Shown piece by piece: positions 1,334 through 63,197 of a stretch of DNA of 64,000 nt; positions within the stretch are counted from its first letter, which is position 1, and each line of letters opens with the position of its first letter. Under the pieces are notes generated by a model that was not told where the DNA came from, did no database searches, and worked only from the letters and a program-made list of their open reading frames with translations. Source of the DNA: Stegostoma tigrinum. Its lineage: Eukaryota. Both the position numbers and the translations under genes were made by a program. The stretch is from positions 27,840,116 to 27,904,115 of the forward strand of contig NC_081363.1 of the NCBI RefSeq assembly GCF_030684315.1, read 5' to 3'.

Positions 1334-2594
1334 TCCCACCCAGCTTCCTGCAAAAGTGCCATTCCCTATTCCCAATTCCTTCGCCTCCGCCACGTCTGCA
1401 TCCAGGATGAAGCATTCCACTCCTGTACACCTCACATGTCCTCGTTTTTCAAGGACAGCAACGTCCCTCCCGCAGTGGTCAAGAACGCCCTTGACCGTGT
1501 CTCCTGCATTTCCCGCAACTCGCCCCTCACATCCCGTCCCCTCAACAACCACCAAAAGGAGAATACCCCTCCTCCTCACGTACCACCAAACCAACCTCCA
1601 GATCCAATGCATCATCCTCCAACACTTCCGCCATCTGCAAGCCAACCCCACCACCAAAGACATTTTTTCCTCCCCACCCTTGTCTGCTTTCCAGAGGGAC
1701 CACTCTCTCCGTGACTCCCTTGTCCGCTCCGCACTCCCCTCCAGCCCCACCACACCTGGCACCTTCCCCTGCAACCACAGGAAATGCTACACTTGCCCCC
1801 ACACCTCCTCCCTCACCCACATCCCAGGCCCCAAGAAGACTTTCCACATCAAGCAGATGTTCACCTGCACATCTGCCAATGTGGCATACTGCATCCGCTG
1901 TACCTGTTGTGGCTTCCTCTACATTGGGGAAACCAAGCGGAGGCTTGGGGACCGCTTTGCAGAACACCTATGCTCGGTTTGCAATAAACAACTGCACCTC
2001 CCAGTTGTGAACCATTTCAACTCCCCCTCCCATTCTTTCAATGACATGTCCATCATGAGCCTCCTGCAGTGCCACAATGATGCCACCCGAAGGTTTGCAG
2101 GAACAGCAACTCATATTCTGCTTGGGAACCCTGCAGCCCAATGGTATCAATATGGATTTCATCAGCTTCAAAATCTCCCCTTTCCCCACCGCATCCCAAA
2201 ACCAGCCCAGCTCATCCCCGCCTCCCTAACCTGTTCTTCCTCTCACCTATCCCCTCCTCCCACCTCAAACCGCACTCCCGTTTCCTTCCTACTAACCTCA
2301 TCCCGCCCCCTTGACCTGTTCGCCCTCCCCGGACTGACCTATCCCCTCCCTACATCCCCACCTACACTCACCTGTACTAGATCCGTCCCCGCCTCTTTAA
2401 CTTGACTGTCTCCTCTCCACCTATCTTCTCCTCTTTCCATCTTCGATCCGCCTCCCCCTCTCTCCCTATTTATTTCAGAGCCCTCTCCTCCTCCGCCATT
2501 TCTGATGGAGGGTCTCAGCCCGAAACGTCAGCTTTTGTGCTCCTAAGATGCTGCTTGGCCTGCTGTGTTCATCCAGCTCCGCACTTTGTTATCT
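1334..2594 (+). mobile_element. Penelope-like retroelement, 5'-truncated and frameshifted (RT C-terminus, GIY-YIG endonuclease, pseudo-LTR family A)
   Basis: SHPASCKSAIPYSQFLRLR in ORF 1319..1714; Cys/His linker CNHRKCYTC and GIY-YIG motif NVAYCIRCTCCGFLYIGETKRRLGDRFAEH in ORF 1326..2405; C-rich 3' region ending in the short repeat found many times in the window. Confidence 0.93.
2502..2529 (+). ncRNA. Minimal hammerhead ribozyme motif in the PLE pseudo-LTR (one core substitution)
   Basis: CTGATGG-A-GGGtctcagCCC-GAAA-CGTC; the core CTGANGA has an A>G change. Confidence 0.6.
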
Positions 2595-3236
2595 AAGTTC
2601 AACCAAAATCTAGCTTTTGAAAGATAAATCCCTTGGGGCTGGTGTGCTCCCAACTGTCTTTGTAGTAATGTAGGTCATGTTCATGTAACCAGTAAATAGT
2701 TCTTGTAATGCAATAAACTTCATCTTGTTTGCTCAACAAGTCTCTTCCAGTTAACCCGATCCACATTAGACCACTTTAGGCTTGAATGAACCCACACATA
2801 ACTCTCTTGGCCAGAGTGTTGAAATAATAGCCAGCAAAGTAACATTCCAAATCAACTGCATCAATTAAATCATAACATATTCCATGCAAGATCACCCTTG
2901 TACATCCCTTTATTCTTTTTTTCCATGTGCTGCACACTATCGTGCTGTTTCACAGATCTGAGCAAGTAGTCGTGGTATGTCTAATTGAAGGCTTCTGACT
3001 TCTAGTGTAGGATGACAACTGGTCTGGCTTTGGACTGCATCAGCCTCAGCTTGTGCAGCTACAGCCTGGGTTGGCTGGCTGACCAGCCACAATAAGGGTA
3101 CAACAGCAGTGGTGGGATCCTGAGAAGGGGCAATGGAGTCACTGAAGTTGTGTCTCAGCTGTCCAATAGGGTTTTGCATTGACGAGAGACTCTACAAAGC
3201 ATAGAACTGGAGATCCATTCGGTCTCGATCTGTACC

Positions 3237-7574: not shown

Positions 7575-7937
7575 GGGGGAGGCAATTGCCTAGTGGTATT
7601 ATCGCTGGACTATTAATTCAGAGACCAGACAGCATTCTGGGGACCTGGGTTTGAATCCTGCCATGGCAGATGGTGGAATTTGAATTCAATAAATATCTGG
7701 AATTAAAAATCTAATGACAACCATGAGTCCATTGTCAATTGTCAGGAAAATACCATGCGATTCACTAATGTCCATTAGGGAAGGAAACTGCCATGCTTAC
7801 CTGGTCTGCTACAGGTGACTCCAGAACCACAGCAATGTGGCTGACACTTAACTACCCTCTGGGCAATTAGGGATGGGCAATAAATGCTGCCTGGCCAGCA
7901 ATTCCCTCAACCTGTGAATGAATAAGAGGAAAAAAAT
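7575..7937 (+). mobile_element. Full-length tRNA-derived SINE sharing its 3' tail with the LINE at 10878-11760
   Basis: A-box-like tgcctagtgg, B-box-like ggtttgaatcc, tail gggcaattagggatgggcaataaatgctg; an inverted copy lies at 62833-63197. Confidence 0.85.
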
Positions 7938-27850: not shown

Positions 27851-28173
27851 CAGGCCGCGGTCGATGCTGGAGAAGAAGGTGCTCACCTGGGAGTGGGCCA
27901 GGAATGGTAGTCAGGCTGAAGAAGTGTACCTGGGAGATATCAGAGATTTCATGAGAGTGGTTACGAGGATGTTAGGCAGCAGGCGAAACTAGCAAGGAGC
28001 TGTACACTAGCACAGTCGGTGATGGAGGGGCCGACATGGGAGTGTCTCTCATGGGACACAACACCATTGTACCGATGATAGGAAATTATTTTATACCCAA
28101 GCCGCTGATGATCACAGGATATTTCCGTTTTTACAAACGGGTACAGCACAGAGGAGAGCCAATCACCCAATTT
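27847..28173 (+). repeat. Inverted copy of the Gypsy leader/gag segment 27150-27483
   Basis: Reverse-complement match; ORFs 27165..27362(+) and 27961..28170(-) give near-identical peptides; gag motif YFIPKPLMITGYFRFYKRVQ. Confidence 0.95.
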
Positions 28174-37116: not shown

Positions 37117-38322
37117 GGGAATAGTAAGAACTGCTGATGTTGGAGCCAGAGATAACACAGAGTGGAACTGGAGGAACATAGCAGGCCAGGCAGCACCAGA
37201 GGAGCAGGAAAGTGACCCTTCTTCAGAAATGGGAAAGGGGGCAAGGGACTCAGAAATAAATTGAGAGAGGAGGGGTGGGGCTGGGGGAGGTAGGTGGGAT
37301 GGTGATAGGTGAGTGCAGGTAGGTAGTGGTGGGAATTGGTCAGTGGGATGGGAGGAGCAGATAGGAGGGAGAGAAGATGGACAGGTTATGTTAGATCAAG
37401 GAGGCAGGAATGAGAGGGAGGGTTGGTCATGGATGAGGCTGGGGCTAGGGAGATTTTGAAACTGATAAAATCCACATTTAAGCCATTGGCCTACAGGCTC
37501 CCGAGGCAGAATATGAGGTGTTTGTGGGTGGCGTCATTGTGACACTGCAGGAGGTCCATGATGGATATGTCACCCAGGGAGTGGGAGGGGGAGTTAAAAT
37601 GGCTAGCGACCAAATGGTGTTGCCGTTTGTCATGAACAGAACGCAGATGCTCTACAAAGCAGTCTCCCAGCCCCGCCTTTGGTCTCACCGATGTAGAGGA
37701 GGCCACATCGGGAGCAGCGGATGTAATAGGCCACATTGGTGGAAAGTTTTTTTTGGGGCCTGTGATGGGGGTGAGGGGAGAGGTGTAGGGGCAGTTATAG
37801 CACTTCCTGCGGTTGCAGGGAAAGGTGCCGGGATTGGTGGAGTTAGTGGGGGGTGTGGAGCGGACAAGGGAATCATGGAGAGACCGGTCCCTACAAAAGG
37901 CAGATGGGGTGGGGAGGGAAGAGGCAGAAAATGATATGTTGGATGCAGATTTTGGTGGGATGATACATGAGGACAAGGAGGATTCTGTCTTTGTTTTTGT
38001 CGGGGGGAAGAGATGTTAGGGCAGGGGTGCAGGGAACACAAGAGGATGTAGTTGAGAGCATTTTTGACAGTGAAGAGGGGAAGTTGCGGTCCTTGAAATC
38101 GGGGGACATCTGGGATGTCCAGGAGCAGAGCAGTCCATCTTGGGAGTAGACGCAGCGGAGGCAGAGGAATTCGGAATAGGGGATTGCATTCTTGCAGGAA
38201 GGTGGATGAGAGGAGGTGTAGTCTGGGTAGCTTTGGGGGTCGTTGGGTTTGAAAGACTTGTTGGTTTTGAGATGGTCACCAGAGATGGAGACAGTGAGGT
38301 CAGGAAGGAGAGGAAGGAACTC
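37117..38322 (-). mobile_element. Penelope-like element, inverted arm (RT C-terminus, GIY-YIG, pseudo-LTR plus tail)
   Basis: YTSSHPPSCKNAIPYSEFLCLR; PGTFPCNRRKCYNCP; LGDCFVEHLRSV. Confidence 0.9.
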
Positions 38323-40072
38323 ACTGCCTACGTCCGGGACACCACCCATATCCTCTACCTCCTACAAGACTTCCAACTCCTTGCTCCCAGCACCTCATCT
38401 TCACTAAAGACACCCAATCCTGTACACTTGTATCCCCCATGCAGATGGCCTAAAAGCCCTCCACTGCTTCCTCTCCCGCAGGCCCAACCAGCACCTCCTC
38501 TACCGACACCCTCATCCGCTTAACTGAACTCGTCCTTACCCTTAACAACTTCTCCAGTAACTCCTCCTACTTCCTACAGACTGAGGTGGTGGCCATGGGA
38601 ACCCGCATGGGCCCAAGCTATGCCTGCTTCTTTGTAGGATATGTGGAACAGTTCCTCTTCCACAGCTACATTGGCACTATCCCCCACCTCTTCCTCCACT
38701 GCATTGATGACTATATCAGCACCGCCTCGTGCTCCCACAAGGAGCTTGAACAGCTCATCAACTTTATTAACACCTTTTACCCCAACCTCAAGTTCACCTG
38801 GACCATCTCCAATACCTCCCTCTCCTTCCTGAACCTCTCTGTCTCCATCTTTGGTGACCACCTCAAACCTGACATCTATTTCAAGCCCCCCAAATTCCAC
38901 AGCTACCTAGACTACACTCCTCTCACCCACCTTCCTACAAGAACGCAATCCCCTACTCCCAATTCCTCCGCCTCCACCACATATGCTCCCAACTTGGGGC
39001 ATACCACTCCCAAACATCCCAGAGGTCCTCTTACTTCAAGGACCGCAACTTCCCCTCTTTGGTGGTCGAAAATGCTCTCAACCGCTTCCTCTTGTGTTTC
39101 CTGCACTTTTGCCCTCACATCCCCTCCCTGCAACAAAACAAAGGCAGAATCCCCCTTGTTCTCACTTATCACCCAACCAACATCTGTATCCAAAGTATCA
39201 TTCTCCGCCACTTCCGCCACCTGCAATCCGAACCCACAATCAAAGAGATGGTTCCCTCCCCACCCCTATCTACCTTCTGTAGGGGCGGCTCTCTCCACGA
39301 CTACCTCATCCGCTCCACATTCCCCACTAACTCCACCACATCCAGCACCTTTCTCTACAACTGCAGGAAATGCTACACCTGCCCCTACACACCCCCTCAC
39401 CTCCATTAAAGGCCCCAAACAAACTTCCCACATTAGCCAGAGGTTCACCTGCTTGCTCGCCAATGTGGTCTATTGCATCTGCTGCTCCCAATGTGGCCTC
39501 CTCTATATTGGTAAGAACAAGTGGAGACTAGGAGACGGTTGTGTGGAGCACTTTTACTCTGTTCAGCACAAACGACCACACCTTCTGGTCTCGAACCATT
39601 TTAACTCTCCCTCCCACTCTCTGGGTGACATGTCCATCCTGTGCCTCCTCCAGTGTCACAATGATGCCACCCACAAACTGAAGGAGCAGCACCTCATATT
39701 ACACCTTGGGAGCCTATAGCCCAATGTCCTATATGTGGTTTTTACCAGTTTTAAAATCTCCCTGCCCCCGGCCTCATCCTGTGACCAACTCTCCCTCCCA
39801 TCCATGCTTCCTTAACCTGACACAACCTGTCCATCTTCTCTCCCAACTATCCACACCACCCATTCCACTGGCCAATCCCCACCACTACCTACCTGCACTC
39901 ACCTATTACCATCCCACCCACTTACCCCAGTCCAACACCTCCTCTCTATTTATTCCACAGCTCCCTGTCCCCCTCCCCAATTTCTGAAGAAGGTTCCCGA
40001 CTCGAAACATCAACTTTCCTGCTCCTCTGATGCTGCGTGGCCTGCTGAGTACCTCCAGCTCCACACTGTATT
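38323..40072 (+). mobile_element. Penelope-like element, degenerate RT plus GIY-YIG plus pseudo-LTR
   Basis: RT motifs VAMGTRMGPSYACFFVG and LHCIDD (YIDD-like); NVVYCICCSQCGLLYIGKNKWRLGD; hammerhead-like CTGAAGA...GAAA at about 39984-40011. Confidence 0.92.
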
Positions 40073-40397
40073 AAGGGGTCACCTTATGGTCTTTGCAGCT
40101 GATGGAGAGTCCCACTCACTCGGACAGAAGATCAGAAACCTGAACACAAGCCCCCCAGAATTTCTTGAACATTTTCTGTTAATCACCCACCCTGCCCACT
40201 TTGAGTTTCGTGGAAATTTGTCCCATGTCCTTTGTGCCTAAGAAAGGTCTGAAAAGATTTTTGTGCAGTTCAATGCTGACAACCATCTGCCAACTCACCT
40301 AAGTAACCCCAATTCAGCTCAGCTGGTGAGAGTTGACATGAGTACATCATAGCCAATGTGCTAATTGAACTTCTATTCAATAATTTCCACTGGACGA

Positions 40398-40825
40398 CCA
40401 TAAGACCATTAGGATATAGGAGCAGAATTAGGACATTTGGCTCATTACGTCTTCCCCACTTTTTGATCATAGTTGATATGTTTCTCAGCCTCATTCTCCT
40501 ACCTTCTCCCTGTAAGTCCTTGATCCCCTTACCAATCAAGAAGGCATTTTTCTCTGTCTTAAAGAAACTCAATGACTGGCTCATTGCAGGCAATGAGTCC
40601 CACAGATTAACCACCCTCTGGCTGGAGAAATTTAATCTCATCTCAGTTCTAAAGGGTTTTACCTTCACTCTGAGGTTGTGCCGTCACATCTTAGCTTCTC
40701 CTCCTGGAGGGAACACCTTCTCTTACATCCACTCTGTCCGGGCCTCTCAGTATTCTGTGAGTTTCAACGAAATCGCCCCTCACCTTTCTAAACTCCACCA
40801 AGTGCAGACATAGAATCCTCAACCA
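40398..40825 (-). mobile_element. CR1 LINE 3' fragment
   Basis: KPFRTEMRLNFSSQRVVNLWDSLP. Confidence 0.88.
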
Positions 40826-42894: not shown

Positions 42895-43131
42895 TCTACT
42901 CCTTCATTTTATTTCTCTTTTGTGCCTTAAGTGTACTTGAGGACAACTCTGAGATGGTTAGCAGTCAACCACACCTGTGAGTCTGGAGTCATAAGTAGGC
43001 TAGACTGGGTAGACTGCATCAAGAAGGCAGCTCGCTACCACCTTCCCAATTAGGGATGGGAAATAAATGATGGAAGCCAGTGATGACAAAATCTATGAGT
43101 GAATTAAAAAACCAGGGAGGCTTTTATGTTA
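42895..43131 (+). repeat. Left arm of an inverted duplication (partner 45995-46226)
   Basis: Reverse-complement match with few substitutions and two small indels. Confidence 0.92.
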
Positions 43132-43262
43132 GAGATAATGGGAACTGCAGATGCTGGAGAATCAGAGATAACAAAGTTTGGAGCTGGATGAACACAGCAG
43201 GCCAAGCAGCATCAGAGGGACAGGAAAGCTGATGTTTTGGGCCTAGACCCTTCTTCAGAAAT
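43132..43262 (-). mobile_element. Solo PLE pseudo-LTR, family A
   Basis: gataatgggaactgcagatgctggagaatc...gcctagacccttcttcagaaatgg. Confidence 0.88.
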
Positions 43263-44595
43263 GGTTATGGGATTACTAGCCCAGGAACATAACCACTATG
43301 TTACCGCATCCTCATCTCATGTAGGCACACATCTCTCTCTCCACCCCACCGGACTTTCCTGTCTCCTGTATCTTCTTCCCCTGTCCAACTCACAGAAAGG
43401 CTTTCTTTCCCATGGCCTCCCATTCACCAAGGCATTCGCCTTTCATGATTTGAGTATCATTGCTCGTGCCCAATAGTGCTGTATTACTTATGGTGGTTAC
43501 TGGAAATTATGTCCAGAATGGGTAGCCTGTCAGAAGTACGGTAAGATCAGGAATTTGTACGAAAGGCACATAGCAAATCAAGCCAGCAATATCAAGTAGC
43601 AGGAGATAATTTTCAAAGGACCGTGGAGGTATACATTCTATTAACAAAGCAAAGAAATTGCAGAATAATTTTCCAGTGACTCAGTTTATATGTATTTTCT
43701 TTAACAGTATAAATCAGGTGATTCTGTGACCTGCCATTTCCTCAGAAGTTACACTTAAAGAGAAAATATGCAAGTATGGCCCATGAGTTTCTATTTTCTT
43801 TACTTACAATTAATAGACACAAATTCACAAATTCTTTGCTTGAATGTCCTGTAGCAACAACTTCCAATTGGAAATAGCACATCTTAGAATCAGCCCTATC
43901 CTTCTCGTTATTTCCTCTTTCATTTTATGATACACAGGGAAGACCTTGCAAAGACAGACAAGAACTAGTCAAATCATGTATTTTATAATGTCACCACTCA
44001 GTGACAATGCACACATCATGACACTGTTCTCCCATGTAAAAAGTCATTTTTACAATAAACAGCTCATGGTTGCATTAAAGAACTTCTAAAACCAATACAC
44101 AAACAAATCTTTGCAAACATGCAAGTTGTAGTCCAGAACAGACCACGTCAAAATATTTTAAGAAGGTAGCCTAGACCCTAACTTCTTGTAATTTTAAAGA
44201 TAGATGTGGAAGTGCACATTCCAAATATGATGGGGCTGGTCAAAATACTCAACATTATTCAAAACACAATTTATTTAAATACTACTGTTAAATACAAACA
44301 AAAGAAAGAGGAATTTAGAGTAACTCAACTATTGGAAATCTTAACAGAATAGCAAATATAGTACCTATAACTACTTAGCTGTTCCAATATAGTAACATCC
44401 CATGAACACAACCCTTAGTAAAAAGGGTAAATTCAGACACAGATTCTCACATGAAATTCTCCAATCCACGAGGGAACAATATTAAGCGAAATTTCAGAGA
44501 AAGTAGCAGCTAGGAATCATTCACTGAAGCTTCCAACTCTTCTGAGACTCCAAATGGTTCCTGATTGCTGGAAAGAACAAAACCTAGAAATCCTG

Positions 44596-45994: not shown

Positions 45995-46226
45995 TAACAT
46001 AAAAGCCTCCCTGGTTTTTTTTAATTCACTCATAGATTTTGCCATCACTGGCTTCCATCATTTATTTCCCATTCCTAATTGGGAAAATGGTAGCAATGCA
46101 GTCTACCCAGTCTAGCCTACTTATGACTCTAGACTCACAGGTGTGGTTGACTGCTAACCATCTCAGAGTTGTCCTCAAGTACAACTAAGGATTATGCACA
46201 AAAGAGAAAGAAAATGAAGGAGTAGA
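45995..46226 (-). repeat. Right arm of an inverted duplication (partner 42895-43131)
   Basis: Reverse-complement match. Confidence 0.92.
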
Positions 46227-46961: not shown

Positions 46962-47177
46962 AAAAACTGAAAGAACTCTGGGTGTTGGAAATCAGAACCA
47001 AAAACAGAAACTGCTGGAAAAGCTCAGCAAGTCTGGCAGCATCTGTGGAGAGAAATGAGAGTTAATATTTCTAGTCCAGTGACACTTCCTCAGAACTGGA
47101 TCCAAAACATTAACTCTTGACTTCTCTCCACGGACACTGCCAGACTTGCTGAGCTTTTCCAGCAATCCCTGTGTTTG
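46962..47177. mobile_element. Family B fold-back element with probable 11-bp TSD
   Basis: Inverted arms ctgctggaaaagctcagcaagtctggcag / ctgccagacttgctgagcttttccagca; CC(T/A)TTATAAGT at 46951-46961 and 47178-47188; minus-strand AGTT-CTGAGGA...GAAA-TATT-AACT. Confidence 0.82.
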
Positions 47178-48719: not shown

Positions 48720-49870
48720 TGATGCCTCACTCAGTCGAATGTGTCCCTGATGTCAAAGGGCTGTCACTCTCAGCTCACCTCTGGAATTCACCTTTTTTGT
48801 CCATGTTTGAACCAAGGCTGTAATGAAGTCAGGAGCTGAGTGGTCCTGGTGGAGCCCAAACCGGGCGTCACTGAGCAGGTTATTGCTGAGCAGATGCTGC
48901 TCAGTGTAGAACTTTTGACACTTTCCATCACTTTACTGTGATCAAGAGTGCTATTCCCGGAATGTTGTCAGAACCATAGTCATTGTAGTATGCAGTGCCT
49001 CCAACCATTCCTTGACATCATGTGGAGTAAATCAAATTTGCTGAATACTTGTACCTCTAATGCTGGGGACCATTGGAGAAGGCTGAGATGGATCATCCAC
49101 TTGGCACTTCTGGCTAAAGATGGCTACGAATGCGTCAGCCTTATCTTTTGCACTGATGTGCGGGACTCTTCCATCATTGAGGATGGGGATATTTGTGGAG
49201 CTTCCTCCTCATCCAGTAGGTTGTTTAATTTTCCACTAACATTCATGACCAGATGTGGCAGAACTGCAGAGCTTAGATCTGATCATTCCTTTTGGAATCA
49301 CTTAGCTCCATCTATCACTTACTGCTTGTGCTGTTTGGCAGGGAAGTAGTCCTGTTTGGAAGCTTGGCCATGTTGACACCTCATTTTCAGGTATGGCATG
49401 CCCTCCTGCACTCTCCATTGAACCAAAGTTGATCCCCTGGCTTGATGGTAATGGTTGAGTGTGGGATATGCCAGGCCATGAGGTTACAGATTATGCTGGT
49501 GTACAATTCTGCTGCTGTTGATGGCCCACAGCCTTACAGTGACAGTGCCACACAAGATAATGGAGGGTATCCTCAACGTGAAGGTGGAACTTCGTCTCCA
49601 CAAGGACTGTGCAGTGGTCACTCTTACCGATACTGTCATGGACAGACACTTCTGCAGCCGGCAGATTGATTAGGATGAGTTCAATTATGTTTTTCCCTCT
49701 TATTTGTATCCTCACCATCTGGTGCAGAATCAGTCCAGCAGGAATGTCCTTTAGAACCGGACCAGCTCGATCAGTAGTACTGAGGCTGATCCACTCTTGG
49801 TGGTGGCATTGAAATCCCCCCCAAGTGTCCTTGCCATCCTCAGTGCTTCTTCCAAGTATTGTTCAATCAG
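48720..49870 (-). mobile_element. Degenerate LINE (AP-endonuclease/linker region), probably the same group as 10878-11760
   Basis: GGDFN motif; NLPAAEVSVHDSIGKSDH (APE C-terminal SDH). Confidence 0.75.
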
Positions 49871-49884
49871 CCAAGTGAGGGGTG

Positions 49885-50190
49885 GAAAGAGAGGAACAGA
49901 AACAGATGGACAGAAACAGAGGGACAAAAACAGAGGGGCACAGAGTGGCGCAAACAGAGGGGCACAAACAGAAGGGCACAAACAGAGGGGCAGAAACAGA
50001 GGGGCAGAAACAGAGGTCGAGAAACAGAAGTCGAGAAACAAAGGACAGAAACAGAGGGCAAAAAACACAGTGCATGAAACAGTGGGCGCGAAAGAGAGGG
50101 AAAGAAACAGAGTGATAGAAAAAGAGGGCGCAAAACAGAGAGTGCGAAACAGTGGGGAGGAAATAGATGGGCAGAAACAGAGGGCACAAA
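49885..50190. repeat. Purine-rich low-complexity tandem repeat (about 16-bp AAACAGAGGGGCAG units)
   Basis: Directly visible. Confidence 0.9.
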
Positions 50191-50194
50191 AGTG

Positions 50195-52140
50195 TGATAA
50201 GTTCCTCAACCCCATCCTCCTGCTTTCTCCCTGTAACCATTGGTCCCCTTGAAAGTCAAGAAACTATCTAACGCAGCCTTAAGTATACTCAATGACCTGG
50301 CCTCCACAGCCTTCTGTGGCAGTGAAATCCATAGATTCACCACTCCCTGGCTGAAGAAGTTTCTCCTTATCTCCATTCTAAAAGGTCCCCCCTTTACTCT
50401 TAGGCTGTGCCGTCAGGTCCTAGTCTCTCCTACCAATGGAAGCATCTTCCCAACATTCACTTTGGCCAGGCCATTCAATATTCTGAAAGTTTCAATTAGA
50501 TCCCCCCTCATCCTTCTAAACTCCACTGAATATAGTCCGAGAGACCTCAAATGCTCCTCAAATGTTAAGCTTTTTCATTCCAGGGACCATTCTTGTGAAC
50601 CTCCTCTGAACCCGCTCCAGGCCAGTACATCCTTCCTGAGATATGGGGCCCAAAACTGTACGCAATACTTGAAATGTGGCCTGACCATAGTCTTGTAAAG
50701 CCTCAGTAGTACATCCCTGCTTTTATATTCAAGTCCACTCAAAATAAATGCCAACATTGCATTTTCCTTCCTGATTACTGATTCAACCTGCAAGTTTACC
50801 CTGAGAGAATCCTGGACTAGAACTCCCAAGTCTCTTTGTACTTCAGAATTCAGGATTTTCTGCCCATTTAGAAAATAGTCCTTGCTTTTATTCTTCTTAT
50901 CAAAGTGCATGACCTCACACTTCCCCATGTTGTACTCCATCTGCCATTTCTTTGTCCACTCTCCTAACCTATCTGCAGCCTTCTGCAGCCTCCCCACCTC
51001 GTCAACACTACCTGTCCCTCCACCTGTCTTTGTATTGTCTGCAAACTTAGCCAGAATGCTCTCAGTTCCTTCATCTGGATCATTAATGTATAAAGTGAAA
51101 AGTTGTGGTCCCAGTACTGACCCTTGTGGAACACCACTTGTCACCGGCTGCCATCTTGAGAAAGACCCTTTTATCCACACTCACTGCTTTCAGCCAGACA
51201 GCCAATCTTCTATCCACGCTAGCACCTTGCCTCTAACACCATGGCCCCTTGTCTGACTCAGCAGCCTCCTGTGTGGCACCTTATCAAAGGCTTTCTTGAA
51301 GTCCAGGTAAATAACATCAATTGGCTCTCCTTGGTCCACTCTGCTCATTACTTCCTCAAAGAATTCTAGCAGATTTGACAGGCATGACCTCCCCTTGATG
51401 AAACCATGCTGACTTTGCTCTATTTTACCACACATTTCCAAATATTCAGCAATCTCATCCTTTACAATGGACTCCAAAATCTTACCCACGACCGAGGTTA
51501 CACTAATCAGCCTATAGCTTTCCGCCTTTTGCCTTACTTCCTTCTTAAACAGGAGCGTCACCTTAGCCATTTTCCAGTCCTCTGGGACCCTCCCTGACTC
51601 CAGTGAATCCTGAAAGATCATCACTAACGCTTCCACCTATCTCTTTAGTTAACTCCTTCAGAACTCTGGGGTGTAGTCCACTTGATCTAGGTGATTTGTC
51701 CACCTTCAGGCCAATCAGTTTTATTAGCACCTTTTCCTTGGTGATGGCCACCATACTCTGTTCTGCCCCCTGACTCTCTTGAATTATTGGGATATTGCTC
51801 GTGTCTTCCACCATGAAGACTGATGCGAAATAGTTATCCAGTTCTTCAGCCATTTCTTTGTTCCCCGCTACCATCTCTCCATCATCATTTTCCAGAGGTC
51901 CAATGTCTACTTTTGCCTCTCTTTTGCCCTTTATGTACCTAAAGAAACTCATACAGTCTTACAGACTGGCTAGCTTACCCTCATATGTAATCTTCTCCCT
52001 CCTTATTTCATTTTTTGTTGCCGTCTATTGGTCTTTGTAAGCTTCCTAGTCCTCTGGTTTTGCACTGCCCTTTGCCATATTGTATGTTTTCTGTTTTGGT
52101 TTTATGCTATCCCTGACTTCCTTACTCAGCCATGGTGGCC
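50195..52140 (-). mobile_element. CR1 LINE, about 1.9 kb, RT domain with frameshifts
   Basis: [54 protein letters not shown]. Confidence 0.96.
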
Positions 52141-52557
52141 GTATCCAGGTTCTTAATGAATTCAGATTCCACCATCTGTCTTGGCAAGATTCAAGCCTAA
52201 GTTCCCAGAAAATTACCTTGGTCTCTGCATTCGTAGTCTTGGCTGATGGATAATACCACTAGACAATAAACTCCTCATCATCATTTTCTCACGTTATACT
52301 ACTTTTTCCAGTACTATGACCACTCACTTTATTTATCTTTATCCCCAATATCCTCCTTATGACCTCCCTACAATTTACTTTTCTCCTTATCTTTATATCA
52401 TCAACATATATGATAACCATACCTCCCATTCTTTCATTCACATCATTTATATAAATTAGGAAAAGTTAAGAATTGATTCCTGTGATTCACTTCTCATTTC
52501 ATCCCACATACCAAAAAATGACCAATTTCTGTCAACAACGAATGAACCTTCTATCTG

Positions 52558-52751
52558 AGATAACAAGGTGTAGAGCTGGATGAACACAGCAGGACAAGCA
52601 GCATCAGAGGAGCAGGGAAGCTGACGTTTCAGGCCTAGACCCTTCTTCAGAAATTTATGAATTTCTGATGCTGCTTGGCCTGCTGTGTTCATCCAGCTCT
52701 ACACCTTGTTATCTCGGATTCTCTGGCATCTGCAGATCCTATTACCTCTGA
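52558..52751. mobile_element. Family A fold-back element with 13-bp TSD (1 mismatch); intact hammerhead core on - strand at 52623-52650
   Basis: AACCTTC(T/C)ATCTG at 52545-52557 and 52752-52764; CTGAAGA-A-GGGtctaggCCT-GAAA-CGTC. Confidence 0.88.
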
Positions 52752-52922: not shown

Positions 52923-53825
52923 GTGACTGCTCAAGTGAAATAAAAATCATTAAGAAGGCAGGCCAGAAATACAGGCACAGCAAATGGAATAAATAGGGCA
53001 TCGAAACTGGACAATAAGTGAAGCATGCTAGGAAGGGGCAACACAGTGTGGAGCTGGAGGAACATAGCAGGTCAGGCAGAATCAGAGGAGCAGGAAAATT
53101 GGTGTTTCAGGTCAGGACCCTTCCTTAGAAATCTAGCCAGGAATGCCTGGTATAAGACAATTCTGCCTGGGAGCAAGATCCAAGCCCATACAAGTGAAAC
53201 CAGAGAGGCACCAGAACACATCAGGAAGTGTGAAAGGGCAATTCAGCCCTTCCTGACAAACAAACTAAACTAGATGCATGGTGCAGACATGCCGCAGTAA
53301 GACAAAAGACCAGGTGTATATTCTGGGTTAAAACCAGACTCCCCAGCCCAAGAACAGACACATCAAAGCAGTCATTGTTAAGCAAGTCAGTGAGAGCCAT
53401 TAGCAGCATTTCAAATTGATAAAGTCAATTAATTCAATACCTCTGATTGGTCAAGTCCTTGGAAAGCTCCGGAAGGTAACTGGCAAAACCTGGGGTACCC
53501 AACTCTCCAGCCTACCTAGGGGCACATTGGGATACAGCAGTGACCACGGCAGCTGGTCCTCCAACAAGAAAGAGAATCAACCCACAAACAGAGGAACAGA
53601 GTGAACAATTCAACAGACCAGCAAAGTTACCGAGTATCTGGGAAGTATTTCAAGTTTCTAAAGAACCAGATAGTTAGCAATAGAGTTGTTAGAAGTGTAA
53701 AGATTTAACACTTAACCTCTGTCGTCATCGAAAAGGATTGTGAACTGGTTCACTGACTGCAGACTCATGCTGTGTAGTCATTTCTTGATACATGCTAAAG
53801 CACCTGGGTAAATTAATATTGTGTA

Positions 53826-54082
53826 AGTGATAATGGGAACTGCAGATGCTGGAGAATCCAACATAATGATATGTGAGGCTGCATGAACACAGCAGGCCAA
53901 GCAGCATCTCAGGAGCACAAAAGCTGACGTTTCGGGCCTAGACCCTTCTGATGAAGGGTCTAGGCCCGAAACGTCAGCTTTTGTGGCTTTCTGATGAAGG
54001 GTCTAGGCCCGAAACGTCAGCTTTTGTGCTCCTGAGATGCTGCTGGGCCTGCTGTGTTCATCCAGCCTCACATTTCACTATC
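53826..54082. mobile_element. Family A fold-back element with perfect 13-bp TSD and tandem hammerhead motifs
   Basis: TTAATATTGTGTA at 53813-53825 and 54083-54095; near-perfect inverted arms. Confidence 0.92.
53948..54018 (+). ncRNA. Tandem pair of intact minimal hammerhead ribozyme motifs (43-nt period)
   Basis: CTGATGA-A-GGGtctaggCCC-GAAA-CGTC at 53948-53975 and 53991-54018; palindromic ACGT stem III; GUC cleavage triplet. Confidence 0.78.
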
Positions 54083-54129
54083 TTAATATTGTGTATACTG
54101 GTTGAGGAGTCTGCCAGGTCTTGGAGACA

Positions 54130-54380
54130 AAAACAAAGTTGCTAGAAAAACTCAGCAGGTCTGGCAGCATCTGTGGAGGAGAAAACAGAGTTAACATTTC
54201 CTCAGAACAGGTCACTGGACCCGAAACGTTAACTCTGTTTTCTCCTCCACAGATGCTGCCAGATCTGCAGAACTTTTCCAGCAACCTTGTATTTGTGATA
54301 ACAAGGTGTCGAGCTGGATGAACACAGTAGGCCAAGCAGCATCATCGGAGCAGGAAGGCTGACGTTTCAAGTTTTTATTT
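54130..54380. mobile_element. Family B fold-back with 14-bp TSD and a nested family A fragment (about 54296-54369)
   Basis: AGGTCTTGGAGACA at 54116-54129 and 54381-54394; inverted arms. Confidence 0.85.
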
Positions 54381-54524
54381 AGGTCTTGGAGACACCCGGT
54401 TCCAGATAATACCACTCACTATCTGAGATCTTTCTGCCAAAGCATAAACACATATCTGTTCCATTATCAGATCCTCTCGTTGCATTTAATGGATGTAAAT
54501 GGTTTGTTACTTAATTAGGAATGC

Positions 54525-56285
54525 CTTCTGTCCTCACAAAAGAGGACACAAATCGATACCAGAAATGTTGAAGAATGCAAGATTTAATGAGAGGGAAGAA
54601 TTGAGGGAGATCAATATTAGAAGAGAAATGGTGTTGGGAAAATTGATGGGATTAAAGGCAGTTAAATGGCTCTAGAAATAATGATGCATTAGTGATCATC
54701 TTCCAGGATTCTACAGACGATGGAACAGTCCCTGCAGATCGGAGGTTAGCCAATGTCACTCCAATATTCAAAACGGGAGGTAGAGAGAAAACAGGGAATT
54801 ATAGGCCAGTAAACCGAACGTCAGTAGTGGGGAAAATTTTTGAATCTATAATCAAAGACTTTATAGTGGAGTATTTAGAAAGCAGTGGCAGGATCAGACA
54901 GATTCAACATGGATTTATAGAGGGGAAATCATGATTGATAAATCTGTTGAAATTACATGAAGATGTAACTAGTAAAGTTGACAAGGGGGAGCAAGTCAAT
55001 GTGGTACATTTGGAGTTTTTAGAAAGTGTTTGACAAAGTCCCACTTAAGAGATTATTGTGCAAGATTAAAGTGCTTGGGATTAGGGGAAGTGTATTGAGA
55101 TGGATAGGAAACTGGTTGGCAGAGAGGAAACAAAGAATAGGAATTACTGGGTCCTTTTCAAATTGGTAGGCAGCAACTAGCTACTCACAATATGTATTAA
55201 TGATTTGGATGAGGGAAGAAAACATAACATCTCCAAGTTTGCAGACAATACCGATTTGGGTGGGAGGGTGAGCTGTGACAAGGATGCAGAGATCCTTCAG
55301 CATGATCAGGACAGATTGGGTGATTGGACAAATCAATGGCAAATGCTGTATAATTTGGATAAATGTGAGGTTATTCACTTTGGAATCAAAAACAGGAACA
55401 TAGAACAACACAATGCAGTACAGGCCCTTCAGCCCTCGATGTTGCGCCAACCTGTGAAACCAATCTGAAGCCCATCTAACCTACACTATTCCGTTATCAT
55501 TCATATGTTTATCAAAGAGGGCAGATTACTACCTGAATAGCTGTAAATTGGGAGGGGGAATACGCAGTGGGACCTGGGTGTCTTTGTGCGCCAGTTGCTG
55601 ACAGTAAGCGTGCAGGTACAGCAGGTGGTAAAGGAGGCAAATGGTATGTTGGCCTTCATTGTGAGAGGTTTCGAGTACAGGAGCAGGGAAGAATTGTTGC
55701 AGTTACATAGGGCCTTGGTGAGGCCACACCTGGAATATCGTGTGCATTTTTCGTCTCCTTCTCTGGGAAGGGTGCTCTTTCTCTCAAGGAAGTTCAGCGA
55801 AGGTTTACCAGGCTGTTTCCGGGGATGCGTGGGACTGATGTATGAGGAGAGATTAACTCGATAAGGCTAGTTTTGCTGGAGTTCAGATGACTGAGGGGGG
55901 AATCTCATAGAGACCTATGAAATTCTAATAAGACTAGACAGGAGCGGATACAAGGAGAATGTTTCTGATGATGGGTGTGCCAGAACCAGGGGTCACAGTC
56001 CAAGGATTTGGGGTAGACCATTTAGGATGGAGATGAGGAGACATTTCTTCACCCAAAGTGTGTTGAGCTTGTGAAATTCATTACCATAGGAATTAGTTGA
56101 TGCCAAAACATTGAATATATTCAAAAGGTGGCTAGACATAGTACTTGGGGTAAATGGGATCAGAGGTTACAGGGAGAAAGTAGAATTAGGCCATTGAGTT
56201 GGATGATCAACCATAATTGTGATGAATGTCAGGAAAGGCTCAAAGGGCTGAATGGCCTCCTCCTGCACTTATCTTCTATGCTTCT
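54525..56285 (+). mobile_element. CR1 LINE with a nested antisense CR1 tail (about 55397-55515)
   Basis: ANVTPIFKTGGREKTGNYRPV, ISKFADNT, ALVRPHLEY. Confidence 0.93.
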
Positions 56286-59055
56286 AGGTTTGTTTTCGCG
56301 TCTACAGGGAAGCTCTGAGGAATGTCAAATTCCAATGTGCTGTCTGTTTCTTCTCTGCAAAAACTGTTAAGATTTGTTTTAGGACCTTTAGTTATCAACG
56401 TAAGTTCTATGAAACGTATATTTGTGCAATCAAAAAGTCCACCTAAAGTCCTCACTCTCATCCAAATCAGCTGCAAGAAATTCAAACCACATAGATTCCT
56501 AAATAAAACAGATGAAATGACATTGCAAGTCAGGCTTCCCTCCTGGGTCCTTTTCCCTGCTTCAGTTGCAGCTACACTCCTTTATATCTAATAAAATCAG
56601 AGGACTCTATCCAGGTAAATTTTCCCGTTTCTGATGTGTCTCAAGGATGTGTGGATCAGGCTCCAGTGGTTTATCAAAGCTCCTCTGCTCTCAAAAACCT
56701 GCTGCAGATGTATTTGCTCTAGATCATGCTGCACTTCAATTCTGAAAAAGGTCATCCCAGACTCAAATATTAACTCTGTTTCTCTCTCCACAGATACTGT
56801 CAGACCTGTTAAGTTTCTCCCGCACTCTGTGTTTTGTTACAAAAAGTTAGCATGCAGGTGTCACAATTAATTAAGAAGGCAAATTGCCTTTGTTGCTACA
56901 GAGCTGGAGTTTGAATACGAGTGTTATATAGTTCCTCCTTAAAACAAGTTAGACAACTCCAACCAGAATGTTGTGAATGAATTTGTCCAGATGCCCCAAA
57001 ATACCGAAGCGGTCAAATCACTACAAACACAAGGCAATACCAGCGCAAAACAGTCCCAACTTTATTAGGAAACAAGTTGCAATGACTTTTAATACTAAAC
57101 ATACTATCCCTATTCTTACTCAGCCTCTTAAGCTCACAATACATCCCAAGTCTCTTGTCAATTTACACAGTCACACTATCTCTCTGGCTCTGTCTCTGGG
57201 TCTATGAAGCTGCTCTCTCTCTCTCTCTGGGTAGTCAGCTGGTTTCTGCCTCTTACCATGCTGGTCTCCTCAAAAGGCCTCCAAAGTGAGATTGGGCTGC
57301 AGGTGAACCCTGTTCTTATACCTTTATGGATGGTTTTCTGGAACTTTCCATAGTTCCACCTAATCAGGGAGACACACTTAATAGTTTGAAACATTGTCAA
57401 TTATTTGGATGGCTTGTCACTGTTTGTTCCTTTGTGTAGCAGGACCCAGTGCCTTTCTGTCTGTGCCCTCCTTTGTTTGCTGGATAAATTGTTGGGATAT
57501 GTCTCAGCTTTCCTGCTCCTCTGATGCTGCTTGTGTTCAATCAGCTCTACACCATGTTATCTTAGATTCTCCAGCATCGGCAGTTCCTACTGTCTCTGTC
57601 CAGGATAACTGTTGCCTTTTACATTATGCTAATATCATTAGCACCTAGCTGCTGTGTTTGCACTGTATCTGGTGTGTGGGTTTTGTGATTTCAGAGTTTT
57701 ATCGGCCAACATACCCAGCATCCCTTGCTGTTTGGCCAAGTTAACAATCTATCTGAGTTTTAGCAGCCAGGACCCCTGCAATGCAGGGAAGTCTTGGGGC
57801 AAGGGCACAAAAATGCCAGCACTGGAGAGTCTGTCAATTTTCACCTGACATTTTTGAGGCTGAAGGACTCACTAGTCTCAATGATGTCTACGGGGCTTTC
57901 AGTAATTGAAAAGACAAACCAGGTGTTTTTACTGGGGCATGGTTCTGGAGCGATGCTAGGTAGAATTATGGTTAGGAAAGTCAGAAATGCAAAATTTCCT
58001 GCCTACCATGCAGTTTAACCCACTGGAACCCACAACAACACCTCTGCATTCCAATGTGTTCCTGGCCAGCAGCCCGAACATTTCATACTCGTTAAACATG
58101 GGGTCCTTTCAAAACTGATTGCTCACAACAAGATATGTTCACCTATAAACTACATTCTAACTGACCTACATTAATTTCTGATTAAACGTTGCTTTGATTT
58201 CAAATCTCTCTATGGCCTCAACACTCTTTCTCTCTGTAACATCCTTGAAACTCACATTCCTCCAAGACTTCCAGCATATTGGGCATCCCCGATTTTAATT
58301 GCACTACCATTTGTGCTCATGTCTTCGCCTGGCAAGTTCCTTTTTTCCTCCGTGCTCTCTCTCTCTCTCTCTCTCGGTCTATCTCTCTGCCTTCAAACCT
58401 TCTTCTTTGGTCAAGACTTCAGTCTTCTATGCAACTGATTCTTTACATAGACAAATTTTGCTTAATAATCTTCTTGTGAGACACTTTTGAATGTTTTATG
58501 CTAATGGCGCTGTATAAATGCAAATTTATGTTGTGTCAATATTACAATGATACTGTTTGTTAAAAATCTAATTTAAAAGGGTGATATCTACAATGACAAG
58601 CTTTGGTGTGTGACTAAAATGAGAATGGTGAAGGGAGTGAATGTTAAAGGTGGAAGATGGGGTGCCAATTATGCAAGTTGCTTTGTCCTAATTGGTGTTG
58701 AGCTTCTTAATTGCTATTCAACCCTTATTCATCCAGACAAGTGGGGAGTATTCTATCACACTCCTATTTTGTGCCTTTTAAATGGTCGACATGCAGTAGG
58801 AATAATGTAATGAATCTTTTGAAGCACCTATCAGAGTAAGTAGTTAGTATAGGTTTCAGACTGTTCAGTAAGAGATTTAAAACTGTTTACTGAAGAGTCT
58901 TGTGAAGAGATTGATAAATTTTTATTAAAATGCGCAGTAAAGTCTGATAAATGTTGTTTATCCTTGATAAAGTACGCAAAAAAGTTGTGTTGTGTTGTAC
59001 CTTCCCCTGAGTATTGTTCCCTTTGTCTATCTCACCAAGTAACATGGCTGAGTTA

Positions 59056-59178
59056 ATAAAATGTGAGGCTGGATGAACACAGCAGGCCCAGCGGCATCTG
59101 TGCCTGCTGTGTTCATCCAGCCTCACATTTTATTATCTTGGATTCTCCAGCATCTGCAGTTCCCATTATCACTGATAC
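59056..59178. mobile_element. Family A fold-back with perfect 15-bp TSD; hammerhead region deleted
   Basis: AACATGGCTGAGTTA at 59041-59055 and 59179-59193; perfect hairpin stem of about 33 bp. Confidence 0.92.
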
Positions 59179-60189
59179 AACATGGCTGAGTTAGACAGTT
59201 TTGCTGTAAACTGGTCAAGGTTAGTCAGGGTACATTTCCCCAGCATTTCAACTTACAACAGAAGGCTTTGTCACAAACTGAGATCTTTCCTTTAGGACAG
59301 CCAGTAGCCTCAGTGATGGCTGGCACAGCATGTGTAACCAAGTCCCTCACACAGCCCCAGTGGTTCTACGTAGATCAGAAACCCATCTCCTCATGAATTT
59401 AGTGTTGCCCCGTGCCAAAATTTTATTCAGACTGCCCCCGCAGTGCCTGGAGGTGCGTTCCTGGACCAAAATCAATTTTGCTTCCAATCTGTCAGTCTCA
59501 AATCTTTGGTTGTAGCTCAGTGTGTAGTCTATTCTGTTTCTAATCCATGTTAAGCCCAGAATTGTTACGCTGGGGGTTCAGTGATGGTAATACTGTTGAA
59601 TTTAAAGGGAGGATAGTTCACAGGTCGGTGCAACATCGAGGGCCGAAGTGCCTGTTCTGCGCTGTATTGTTCTATGTTCTATGTTCAATTCTCTTTTGTT
59701 TGAGATGGTCATTTCCATGCATCAAAGTTATTTTTTGCTGCTATCAGCCCAACCCTGAACATTGTCCACATCTTGCTGTATGACAAGCCAAGGTCTTGGT
59801 GACACCATCTCATATCTGCTTTGGATCTGAACCAATTTTTTTTTCCACATGCCTCAGTGAAGTGCAGGAAGACATATTTATGCTCGTTAAAGGCACTGTG
59901 TAGATACATATTTTAAATTATTTGATGCTGACAGTGAAAATATGGGCATGTCTGGATTATGACAGGGGCAATAGAGTACACCTATTCATCCTTCAGAAGG
60001 TTAGCCTCGTGAATCAAATTACAGCATTATTTGATATACTGATGGAGGCTCTGTAAGTAGTACGCCATCAAACCTGAGCTTCAGCCTGATCTCAGAAGAC
60101 CACAGAAGAGAGCAAGCAGTTTATTAATATTTCTCCCTGAAGATAATGTTTCACATTACAGCTGAGATGTTGGAATTATTTCATTAGTT

Positions 60190-60530: not shown

Positions 60531-62168
60531 ACTTATTATTACACAATACTATAAATAATACAATGCAATGGTGATATTGTAATTTGACTAGCCTTAGGAT
60601 ACCCAATTAAACCAATTTAGATTGCTGATATATACTAATATGTCGTGCATGTCAATTCAGTGCTAATTTAAAAAAAACACTCTTAAAAGAACAATACTTT
60701 GTAGTCAACAGATCCAGAATAATCATGACTAGTGGGTTCTGCAGGTCCTCCATTGGAGAATAGTAAAATCTTACAGGTATTTTGGTCATCTCTTAATTAT
60801 TGCCAAGAAAGTATAGTCCTCCATTTCCAGTGTTCTTCAAGCATAACTCTGACTGGGAAAATCAGTAGGTCTTCATCGGGTGCAGCCTAGGTAACATACC
60901 AATCATATATGTCCATAGCTGTGGAAACAGTTGCCAAGCAACAGTTTATGAAGAAATTTTCAAACTGACTGTTTTTAACAGGGCTGAGTGTCTTGAACTA
61001 CACAAGCGTCTTGTTATTTTAAAAGCTCTGTTATAACCAGAGAAAAAAAGCCGTCTAATTTTCTTCAGATTTGAGTCTGAGCTCAGCTTTGAAGTTCCAA
61101 ATGCTTATGCAAAGCTGAATTCAAGTGTTTATTTTGTACAGTTCAATGGGATGGTTGCGTTTAACATGATTTAGCTGATAACAGTAAAATAAGGTGCCTA
61201 TAACGATTGTTTGTACCTAGAGATATCACCCTTTTAAATTGGATTTTTAAAAAGTTATATCCATGTAATATTAACAGAATATCAATTTCCATTTATATAG
61301 CACCATTATCATTAAACATTCAAAGGCTCTTCACAAGAGGATTATTAAGTAAAATTTGTCACCCTAAGGAATCACTAGGACAAATGACAGAAACCTTGCC
61401 CAAATAGGAAGGTTCTTAAGGCTTGTATTGAAGGCAGAGAGAGAGGAGAGAGGGAGAGGGAGGCAGAAATGTTTGGGGGAGGGAGGTTCAGAGCTCAGGA
61501 ACTTGCCAGGAGAAAGCAAGGTCAACAATAGTATGCAACTAAAATCAGGGATGCTCAATAAGCCAGAGATCTTGGAGGATTGTGAGTTTCAAGGAGGTTA
61601 CGGAGAGAAAGAGCACTGAGGCCATAGAGGGATTTGAAAACAAAGGTAAGAATTTTTAAATCGAAGCATTGCATAACCAGAAATCAATACAAGTTATTGA
61701 GCACAAGGAATATAGATGGACAGGGCTTAGTATGAGTTTTGGATGATCCCACATTAAAAAAGGGTGGAGAATATGGGAGTCTGGTCAGAACGGTACTGAA
61801 GTGGCTGAGTTCAGAGGTTGCAAAGGTTCAACTATAGTTAAGCTGCATGATAAGCAAGGAAACCTGCTCTTCTAGGTTTCCGAATCACAGTAACTACTAG
61901 CTCTGCTCCAAAACCATGCCACAAGAAACACTGTTGGTTTATCTTTACAATTACTGAGGAGCCTGTGGATGACCTTCAGCAACTGGTGCATCCATTAGAT
62001 AGTATAGTTGGCCTAAAGTTTTGTCTGAATAAACAGACTGCTTATCTGACATCCAGTACTGTATGAGCACAAATACTGGGAAGTTCAAAGCTATTGTCTT
62101 TGATCCTTGCTACTGACTCCACTCCTTTCTTTGGCAAAACATTCCAAACAGGCTAATTCACAACTTAA

Positions 62169-62395
62169 GTGAGATAATGGGAACTGCAGATGCTGGAGAA
62201 TCCGAGATAACAAAGTGTAAGGCTGGATGAATACAGCAGGCCAAGTAGCATCTTAGGAGCACAAAAGCTGACGTTTTTGGGCCTAGACCCATCATCAGAA
62301 AAGGGTCGAAGGGTCGAGGCCGGAAATGTCAGCTTTTGTGCTCCTAAGATGCTGCTTGGCCTGCTGTGTTCATCCAGCTCCACACTTTGTTATCT
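62169..62395. mobile_element. Family A fold-back with 16-bp TSD (2 mismatches)
   Basis: CTAATTCACAACTTAA at 62153-62168 and CTAATTCACGATTTAA at 62396-62411; inverted arms. Confidence 0.88.
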
Positions 62396-62832
62396 CTAAT
62401 TCACGATTTAATGTCATTTTTGACCCTGAGATGAACTTCCAACAACATATCTATGTCACCCCAGGGCATGTTTGAATGTTTTTTCGCCAGTTGCTATCTA
62501 GAAACAGGCCCACTTGACAGTGTGGGTGGGTGGATTCGTTGGTGGGTCGGTTGGTTGAGACCCAGGGGGTCTTGTGGTGCCATGTCCTTACCTGGGTTCA
62601 AGTACTACTTGCTCTTGAGGTGTTCAATAACATCTCTGAACAAGTTGATTGGAAAAATAGGTTAATTCTTTTATTAAAAAGCAGTTCCAATATTTTGATT
62701 TAATCCCTTTCTGCTCTTCCAACTCAACCTTCCCCTCGGCTTCAATAGTCAGTATTTGCCCATAATGGGCTTTGTTTGTAAACGTTCAATTGGCTACAGG
62801 TGTTTCACTGTTGGTGTTTAGCAAGTTAAACT

Positions 62833-63197
62833 CTTTTTTCCTTTATTCATTCTCAGGATGAGGTCGTTGCTGGCCAGGCGGCATTTATTGCCCATCCCTA
62901 ATAACCCAGAGGGCAGTTAAGAGACAACCACATTGTTGTGGGTCTGGAGTCACATGTAGGCCAGACCGGGTAAGGGTGGCAGTTTTCTCCCCTAAAGGGA
63001 CATTAGTGAACCAGATGGGTTTTCCCCTGACAATCAACAATGGATTCATGGTCATCATTAGATTCTTAATTCCAAATATTTATTGAATTCAAATTCCACC
63101 ATCTGCAATGGCAGGATTTGAACACTGGTCCCCAGAATATTATCTGGGTGTCTGGATTAACAGTCCAGCGATAATACCACCAGGCCATCACCTCCCA
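62833..63197 (-). mobile_element. Full-length tRNA-derived SINE (same family as 7575-7937)
   Basis: Reverse-complement similarity over the whole length. Confidence 0.88.

Follow-up and report, generated by a model that had tools for sequence, protein, structure and literature searches.

Tandem minimal hammerhead cores in a zebra shark Penelope-like insertion: a probable by-product of retrotransposition

In a 64,000-nt stretch of the Stegostoma tigrinum genome (contig NC_081363.1, positions 27,840,116 to 27,904,115; hereafter the window), two minimal hammerhead ribozyme (min-HHR) cores lie in tandem within the inverted end of a Penelope-like element (PLE). In all likelihood the pair is a passive by-product of Penelope-like retrotransposition, i.e., a local joint duplication in an inverted pLTR insertion that carries no locus-specific function.

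Anatomy of the insertion and its two cores

The initial annotation of this locus had described two identical motifs 43 nt apart, and this description was borne out. Cores A and B read, letter for letter, CTGATGA-A-GGGTCTAGGCCC-GAAA-CGTC at 53948-53975 and 53991-54018, with C3 at 53948 and 53991, respectively, and they fall within an exact 40-nt repeat (53946-53985 = 53989-54028) with a period of 43. Both belong to a single head-to-head PLE insertion at 53826-54084, bearing a TSD, inverted arms and a one-sided tail. Its order is an antisense arm with a tail of ~34 nt, copy A, a 3-nt joint and a tail-less sense arm, as follows:

53813..53825, + strand: left TSD, 13 bp, AT-rich, identical at 13/13 positions to 54083-54095
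53826..53948, - strand: left arm, an inverted, 5'-truncated PLE pLTR end; CUGAU is missing
53826..53859, - strand: "tail" extension of about 34 nt, on the left arm only
53946..53985, + strand: copy A of the 40-nt duplicated segment; a TTC microhomology links it to the left arm
53948..53975, + strand: min-HHR core A (C3 53948, stem II 53956-53967, ACGU 53971-53974, putative cleavage site after C53975)
53976..53990, + strand: 15-nt linker, with the non-native duplication joint at 53986-53988; helix I of 2 bp in register, or 4 bp if shifted by 2 nt
53989..54084, + strand: right arm, the sense PLE pLTR end, tail-less, beginning 2-3 nt before C3
53991..54018, + strand: min-HHR core B, putative cleavage site after C54018; the ATG of the core opens MKGLGPKRQLLCS*
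54083..54095, + strand: right TSD, paired with 53813-53825

The score of the 13-bp TSD was reached by 0 of 300 random position pairs, and the 13-mer occurs in the window at 53813 and 54083 only. When 13 hand-delimited units were searched for TSDs, four scored at least 9 (null 4/300) and the other nine were indistinguishable from chance. The arms pair over 89 nt at 94% (53860-53948 with 53996-54084) and over 33 nt at 100% (53916-53948 with 53953-53985). A tail was present on one arm only in all four two-armed hairpins of the same end family (family 1) in the window; for 53826-54084, the end of the right arm was placed separately, local alignment having stopped early.

This architecture resembles EN+ PLE insertions (Arkhipova et al., 2013, PMC3846280; Craig et al., 2021, PMC8557442) in its inverted 5'-truncated copy, its microhomology joints and its tail, reported there as 30-40 nt at one end; TSDs are 8-10 bp in those reports and 13 bp here. 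It differs from them in its short, ORF-free arms (95-125 nt) and in the 40-nt direct duplication at the joint. The initial annotation had proposed that the upstream antisense arm acts as a structural switch. The arm does exist, but since the TSD, inverted arms and one-sided tail match the described PLE pattern, it is simply the inverted pLTR that PLE insertions normally have, and one occurs at five family-1 joints in the window. No hammerhead core was found on the minus strand of the insertion; the left arm contains none there because CUGAU is missing. Further hairpin insertions, with TSDs of 15-16 bp and one-sided tails, were observed at 59041-59193 and 62153-62411. A second PLE insertion (54116-54394), apparently nested, lies ~20 nt downstream with a 14-bp TSD (54116, 54381), and contains a family-2 hairpin (54127-54296) and a family-1 antisense fragment (54294-54372).

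In both cores, stem II consists of 4 bp (three G-C and one U-G) closed by a CUAG loop, and helix III is the palindrome ACGU alone (53971-74, 54014-17), just as the initial annotation had it; the cores are PLE-type minimal type I hammerheads. Each presents the conserved CUGANGA...GAAA...UH core with stem II, a palindromic 15.2-16.2, no monomeric helix III, an extra nucleotide after A9 (A53955/A53998) and the G10.1-C11.1 pair (G53956-C53967 in core A), and each is located in the terminal repeat of a PLE. The PLE min-HHRs of Cervera and de la Pena (2014, PMC4209133) share the core, the extra nucleotide, the G10.1-C11.1 pair and the palindrome, likewise lack loop 3, and are also located at PLE ends, mostly in scattered truncated copies. 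In contrast, the Schistosoma motifs in that paper have 4-5 bp in helix I and 7-8 bp in helix II, compared with 2 and 4 bp here, and motifs there are spaced by ~3 kb rather than 43 nt; the one supplement of the paper that was searched contained no shark. We also considered stem II as a conserved kissing or dimerisation palindrome; this idea was set aside, since copy 2502, family 2 and the Stegostoma protein P0002 do not share the loop.

A strict min-HHR descriptor (core, stem II of at least 3 pairs, palindromic 15.2-16.2 and UH) matched the window three times, at 53948 (+), 53991 (+) and 52650 (-). Given a mean of 0.05 matches per window in 100 Markov-1 shuffles, the motif is not due to chance. 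Helix I, however, extends in register to only 2 bp in both cores (U-A and U-G, with a mismatch next). The native copy at 52650 likewise has 2 bp in register, and because this holds for the family's native helix I, its weakness does not discriminate the locus from a presumably once-active parent.

The Infernal search against Rfam that had been proposed as a check returned no hammerhead in the entire window at E<=1. When the search was narrowed to the stretch concerned, Hammerhead_3 (RF00008) aligned to 53968-54020 with 15.3 bits against a gathering threshold of 48.5 (E 0.34-0.58); the threshold was not reached, and no other hammerhead model was among the matches on the window or the narrowed stretch. 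The description of the hammerheads as intact therefore holds for the letters of the core, but not for helix I or the Rfam score. Matches to Rfam miRNA models were rejected as generic hairpin matches scoring far under gathering.

The surrounding sequence is the pLTR end of a Neptune-like PLE, and this end also follows each of three decayed PLE ORFs in the window:

1334..2597, + strand: decayed parent-type PLE that keeps an RT thumb, a CxxxxCxxC linker and GIY-YIG and leads into the same hammerhead end; core mutated, C3 at 2502
about 38457..40064, + strand: second decayed PLE with RT and GIY-YIG remnants and a decayed hammerhead end, C3 at 39984
37153..38317, - strand: third decayed PLE, head-to-head inverted relative to the 38457-40064 element; hammerhead partly deleted

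In translation, RT motifs are recognizable, together with a linker of the form CX4CxxC and a GIY-YIG domain. The second and third copies form a large-scale inverted arrangement (37153-40073), in which two long decayed PLEs stand head to head with 75% identity across 1266 nt. The ORF piece at 1560-2102 gave 27 matches from 190 candidates, the best being from Rhincodon typus (86%) and Stegostoma tigrinum (79%), and the matching shark proteins carry RT and GIY-YIG. Pfam detected GIY-YIG (E 8.6e-5) and RVT_1 on the matched protein P0001; on the window piece, GIY-YIG fell short of the cut-off (E 0.0075). The C-terminus of Stegostoma protein P0002 is the translated hammerhead stretch, with tblastn placing the end of P0002 on 53964-54032. 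The frame MKGLGPKRQLLCS* from the ATG of core B matches the C-terminal 13 aa of the zebra shark PLE protein at 12 of 13 positions.

The ORF remnants retain a CX2-5CxxC linker finger as well as, at the C-terminus, GIY-YIG with CCHH, which are features of the Neptune clade (PMC8557442), and only Neptune and Poseidon PLEs are reported from vertebrates in a recent preprint (bioRxiv 10.64898/2026.07.22.740005). As Nematis has a linker finger too, we call the element Neptune-like on motif and host range together. It shares with the Poseidon element PAc of Anolis (Frangieh et al., 2024, PMC11167929) an ATG at the core and stem II, an AT-rich target and two classes of 3' ends ~35 nt apart, which in PAc match two internal RT start sites. 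Unlike the shark element, which is described here from sequence alone, PAc belongs to another clade and is characterized biochemically.

BLAST with eight window-derived queries, the matches being merged, identified 30 PLE end segments of two families, covering 3080 of 64000 nt (4.8%). Among the 12 family-1 arms that span the core position, the core is broken in nine and intact in three, two of the latter being those at 53948 and 53991. Contigs from four public sequencing runs accumulate on the element; in run X1 their summed depth reached 2-25 million, versus ~20-25 on single-copy flank contigs, which is a hint of abundance and not a copy number. Members of the second end family were observed at 46985-47177, 54127-54296, 9786, 11958, 34532, 35213, 42145 and 56765; the family-2 motif at 47088 (-), judged by eye, has a GUU-type site and a helix I of 4 bp, and is better formed than that of family 1.

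Outside the PLE ends, 143 of the 179 frames of at least 72 aa were run against Pfam and yielded RVT_1 and a weak integrase only, with no host gene; the other 36 were mostly PLE, CR1-like and simple-repeat stretches, some of which were scanned separately. LINE remnants, which we take to be CR1-like from their appearance, occur at 50195-51958 (-), 54540-55500 (+), 25320-26028 and 40398-40798, with RVT_1 at 50575-51177 and 51193-51636, and a degenerate GA-rich 14-nt minisatellite lies at the end of a LINE fragment (~49870-50200). The weak integrase-core match (26870-28300, E 5.6e-4) adjoins a 334-nt inverted duplication (27150-27483 vs 27847-28173, 91%). Other inverted dispersed repeats, at 74-88%, pair 7577-7935 with 62834-63196, 58192-58589 with 61221-61645 and 42895-43131 with 45995-46226.

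The duplication at the arm joint

The two cores result from the direct duplication of 40 nt where the inverted arms meet. By eye, five family-1 head-to-head joints were recognized in the window, and in three of them the start of the right arm is directly duplicated, over 10 nt near 14715, 40 nt at 53946 and 7 nt near 62300. At the fourth (52666) the same 43-nt interval is deleted, between two TCTGATG words, and the fifth (59095) is simple; in copy 37215, part of the core is missing. Joint rearrangements are routine in the window, and that at 53946 is long enough to include a whole core. Cores A and B represent a junction duplication like the others in the window, with no sign of an independent unit. 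In the hairpin insertion 52553-52748, the right arm lacks 43 nt and the core, making it, in size, the reciprocal of the duplication at 53946.

A straightforward course of events can be proposed. A Neptune-like PLE whose pLTR begins with a minimal type I hammerhead would have left very many stubs of 90-140 nt, often paired head to head. At the joint of the arms in 53826-54084, the first 40 nt of the right arm are observed to be copied twice. Most likely, the reverse transcriptase would have run off the 5' end of the RNA, re-primed ~40 nt back and run off again; alternatively, repair may have copied the 40-nt stretch while joining two cDNAs. Two cores stand at the joint because the duplicated stretch contains a whole core.

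The same duplication might instead have arisen after insertion, by replication slippage or by repair, in either case at the tip of a palindrome that is nearly perfect and has a 4-nt loop, expanding the spacer from 4 to 47 nt. Such a product would be equally functionless and differ in timing alone, so that this account, which we consider possible though rather doubtful, overlaps with the confidence placed in the by-product reading. Long palindromes are stabilised by central rearrangements, and the reciprocal 43-nt deletion at 52666 between two TCTGATG words shows an event of the matching kind. The left arm, copy A and copy B are, moreover, identical throughout the duplicated unit, whereas 5 of the 56 sites beyond it distinguish the two arms; such identity has P = 0.03 for a duplication at insertion and P = 0.10 for a recent one. 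It hints mildly at constraint, at conversion, at two different templates or at a recent duplication and, like the presence here of two of the three intact cores, weighs against a purely neutral reading. Any of the following would account for it: a young insertion, a slip at a later time, conversion, or RNA templates of two different kinds. Against a later event, A and B begin at the 5' boundary common to the family (-2 and -3 relative to C3), where a later slip need not begin, beyond the position of the tip itself; the joint needs 1-2 untemplated letters; and a similar duplication occurred at 14715, at a joint with almost no palindrome.

An error of assembly or consensus within the hairpin repeat appears very improbable. 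The tandem and inverted structures of PLEs are known to trouble assemblies (PMC8557442), and among the contigs listed for runs X1, X2, X5 and X6 (four of 23 runs), no piece spans the insertion or crosses the joint; the left-junction contig enters the element by 21 letters and does not bridge it. However, three letters of the joint occur in neither neighbouring copy at that register, and the flank contigs of X1 and X2 show 0 differences from the window; in a related shark (organism B), the flanks are ~94% alike. The clean TSD and five differences between the arms likewise indicate that the insertion is not a fold-back read. In other genomic copies, five of the 15 contig joints listed connect a left-arm position with 53947 or 53988, which fits common hairpins beginning at the core.

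We also weighed whether the dimer could be the seed or relic of a non-LTR retrozyme family amplifying as a 43-nt unit. Like non-LTR retrozymes (Cervera and de la Pena, 2020, PMC7229834; Li, Clavereau and Pollet, 2026), it consists of tandem type I hammerhead units derived from a PLE pLTR, and copies A and B form two consecutive units with complete hammerhead motifs, the minimum in the working definition of a recent preprint, which traces retrozymes back to the pLTRs of PLEs and lists them for the single chondrichthyan it covers (bioRxiv 10.64898/2026.07.22.740005). Retrozyme families, on the other hand, are made up of dispersed or arrayed units of ~50-1000 nt, whereas the window holds a single two-copy case, at 53948/53991, enclosed in a TSD-flanked PLE hairpin. 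Its 43-nt unit is shorter than the 51-972 bp range given in the preprint, and its ribozyme is minimal, unlike the canonical hammerheads of classical retrozymes of 150-450 bp (PMC7229834). A retrozyme origin is accordingly the least credible of the readings considered, and extremely unlikely. Exact-pattern scans of metagenome, viral and prokaryotic collections returned 0 matches each.

Predicted folding and ribozyme activity

The initial annotation went on to propose that the two cores form a cis double hammerhead or a type III-like fold that cleaves. Even in a version in which cleavage is merely slow, or is assisted by the PLE protein acting as a chaperone, and need not serve a function, we regard this as unlikely. 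The pairing of ACGU with ACGU and the type III-like threading can indeed be drawn, and Rfam Hammerhead_3 selects exactly 53968-54020; the full letters of the core are also present twice. The linker, proposed as a weak helix I, does provide 4 bp, but only when shifted by 2 nt, which strands UU between helix I and C3. The Hammerhead_3 alignment suffers from the same defect, with two model positions deleted and non-pairs adjoining the core.

Nearest-neighbour predictions, which ignore tertiary contacts of the core and help from proteins, spoke against the double fold. For the isolated dimer, the predicted minimum of -36.1 kcal/mol is a 12-bp hairpin of stem II with stem II, which forms because stem II is nearly self-complementary, and the forced double hammerhead came to +0.2 kcal/mol. 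The best single-core fold, that of core B cutting after C53975, reached -18.9 kcal/mol, 17 above the minimum, so that hammerhead folds of the dimer lie a predicted 17-36 kcal/mol above competing ones. For the whole insertion, predicted values were -179.9 kcal/mol for the minimum, -113.4 with both cores and -156.4 with core B, the best single-core fold being 23.5 kcal/mol above the minimum. The predicted probability of helix III was <=0.0001. A competitive dimeric fold, i.e., both helices I plus a cross helix III, did not emerge in these predictions, which included no known active dimer as a positive control.

During transcription, the left arm comes first and is predicted to bury copy A in a perfect 33-bp stem; in the finished RNA, copy B is buried instead, so that one copy is buried in each predicted state. 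If the + strand is transcribed at all, its RNA would be expected to fold arm against arm into a long hairpin, with one copy buried and no double hammerhead formed.

Published activities leave some room for cleavage. Dimeric and trimeric constructs of PLE min-HHRs cleave at a low level, and a 2-bp helix I is described for a D. virilis PLE variant (PMC4209133). In Xenopus, one of nine dimers cleaved in vitro (bioRxiv 10.64898/2026.07.22.740005). In the anole, cleavage by the PLE hammerhead required protein, and the ribozyme was dispensable for insertion in vitro (PMC11167929). Taken together, the tandem cores are predicted not to form a working double ribozyme, and the pair is most likely inert.

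Short arms and their 5' ends

The 5' boundary at which A and B begin is shared with five other arms. Family 1 comprises 21 arms in the window, of which four extend into the ORF and 17 are short (for example 43127-43264, 52553-52655, 53040-53132 and 62166-62305). Seven of the short arms, copies A and B among them, begin at -6 to -2 relative to C3, and no short arm begins from -90 to -7; the start at 52661 was placed by eye and microhomology makes that at 62166 imprecise. A uniform model gives P of ~1e-6 for the gap in starts, an interval chosen post hoc, and ~1e-4 for the pile-up, in which two of the seven starts share one insertion. The cleavage site (+28), in contrast, showed no accumulation of 5' ends: two arms begin near +24 to +26 and none at +28. 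The 3' ends of family-1 arms fall at +89 to +100 (eight arms) and +127 to +132 (nine), with four elsewhere.

Just upstream of the native core at 2502, we noted a putative promoter:

2467..2502, + strand: TATA-like TATTTAT (2467-2473) at a distance of 31 nt from Inr-like CCATTTC (A at 2498)

In three native copies, TATTTAT stands 35-37 nt before C3 together with an Inr-like A at -4/-5, and a fourth has the Inr-like A with an ATTTAT variant; the four copies are homologous and hence not independent. These calls follow the TATA and Inr consensus sequences. Such a layout is not general among PLEs, given that the internal promoter of D. virilis Penelope has no TATA (PMC2377424).

The 5' wall suggests run-off of the reverse transcriptase at the 5' end of the RNA. 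Taken alone, the view that the stubs are run-off ("strong-stop"-like) cDNAs has, in our estimation, about an even chance of being correct. PAc provides a precedent, in that internal RT initiation, at two sites separated by about the length of a tail, and extension of both nicked strands are reported (PMC11167929). A much fuller scenario would add that transcription starts 4 nt before the core, with the TATA-like element at -31 and an Inr; that RT starts internally ~95/130 nt downstream; that cDNAs primed on two strands are joined head to head; that the dimer is an RT jump-back; and that it is the smallest natural cis min-HHR pair, cleaving with the help of the PLE protein and a possible seed of retrozymes. 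As a whole, this scenario is very improbable. A mostly open-access literature search, Repbase and Dfam aside, turned up no article dealing specifically with PLE stubs in sharks or with the 5' wall of such stubs.

As a ribozyme finding, the tandem pair is minor, min-HHRs in PLE ends and inverted pLTR insertions having already been published, and in a genome rich in stubs some joints are expected to duplicate the core. Were it to cleave, nature would have supplied a substrate with which to ask how the minimal hammerheads of PLEs come to pair with one another. Of greater use are two side results, namely that the stubs end in a sharp 5' wall at an Inr-like site and that their tails are one-sided. 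The in vivo steps of PLE integration are still described as unvalidated (PMC11167929), and genome-wide counts of stubs would test a simple model of PLE integration in which RT begins internally and runs off the RNA at its 5' end, with priming on both strands.
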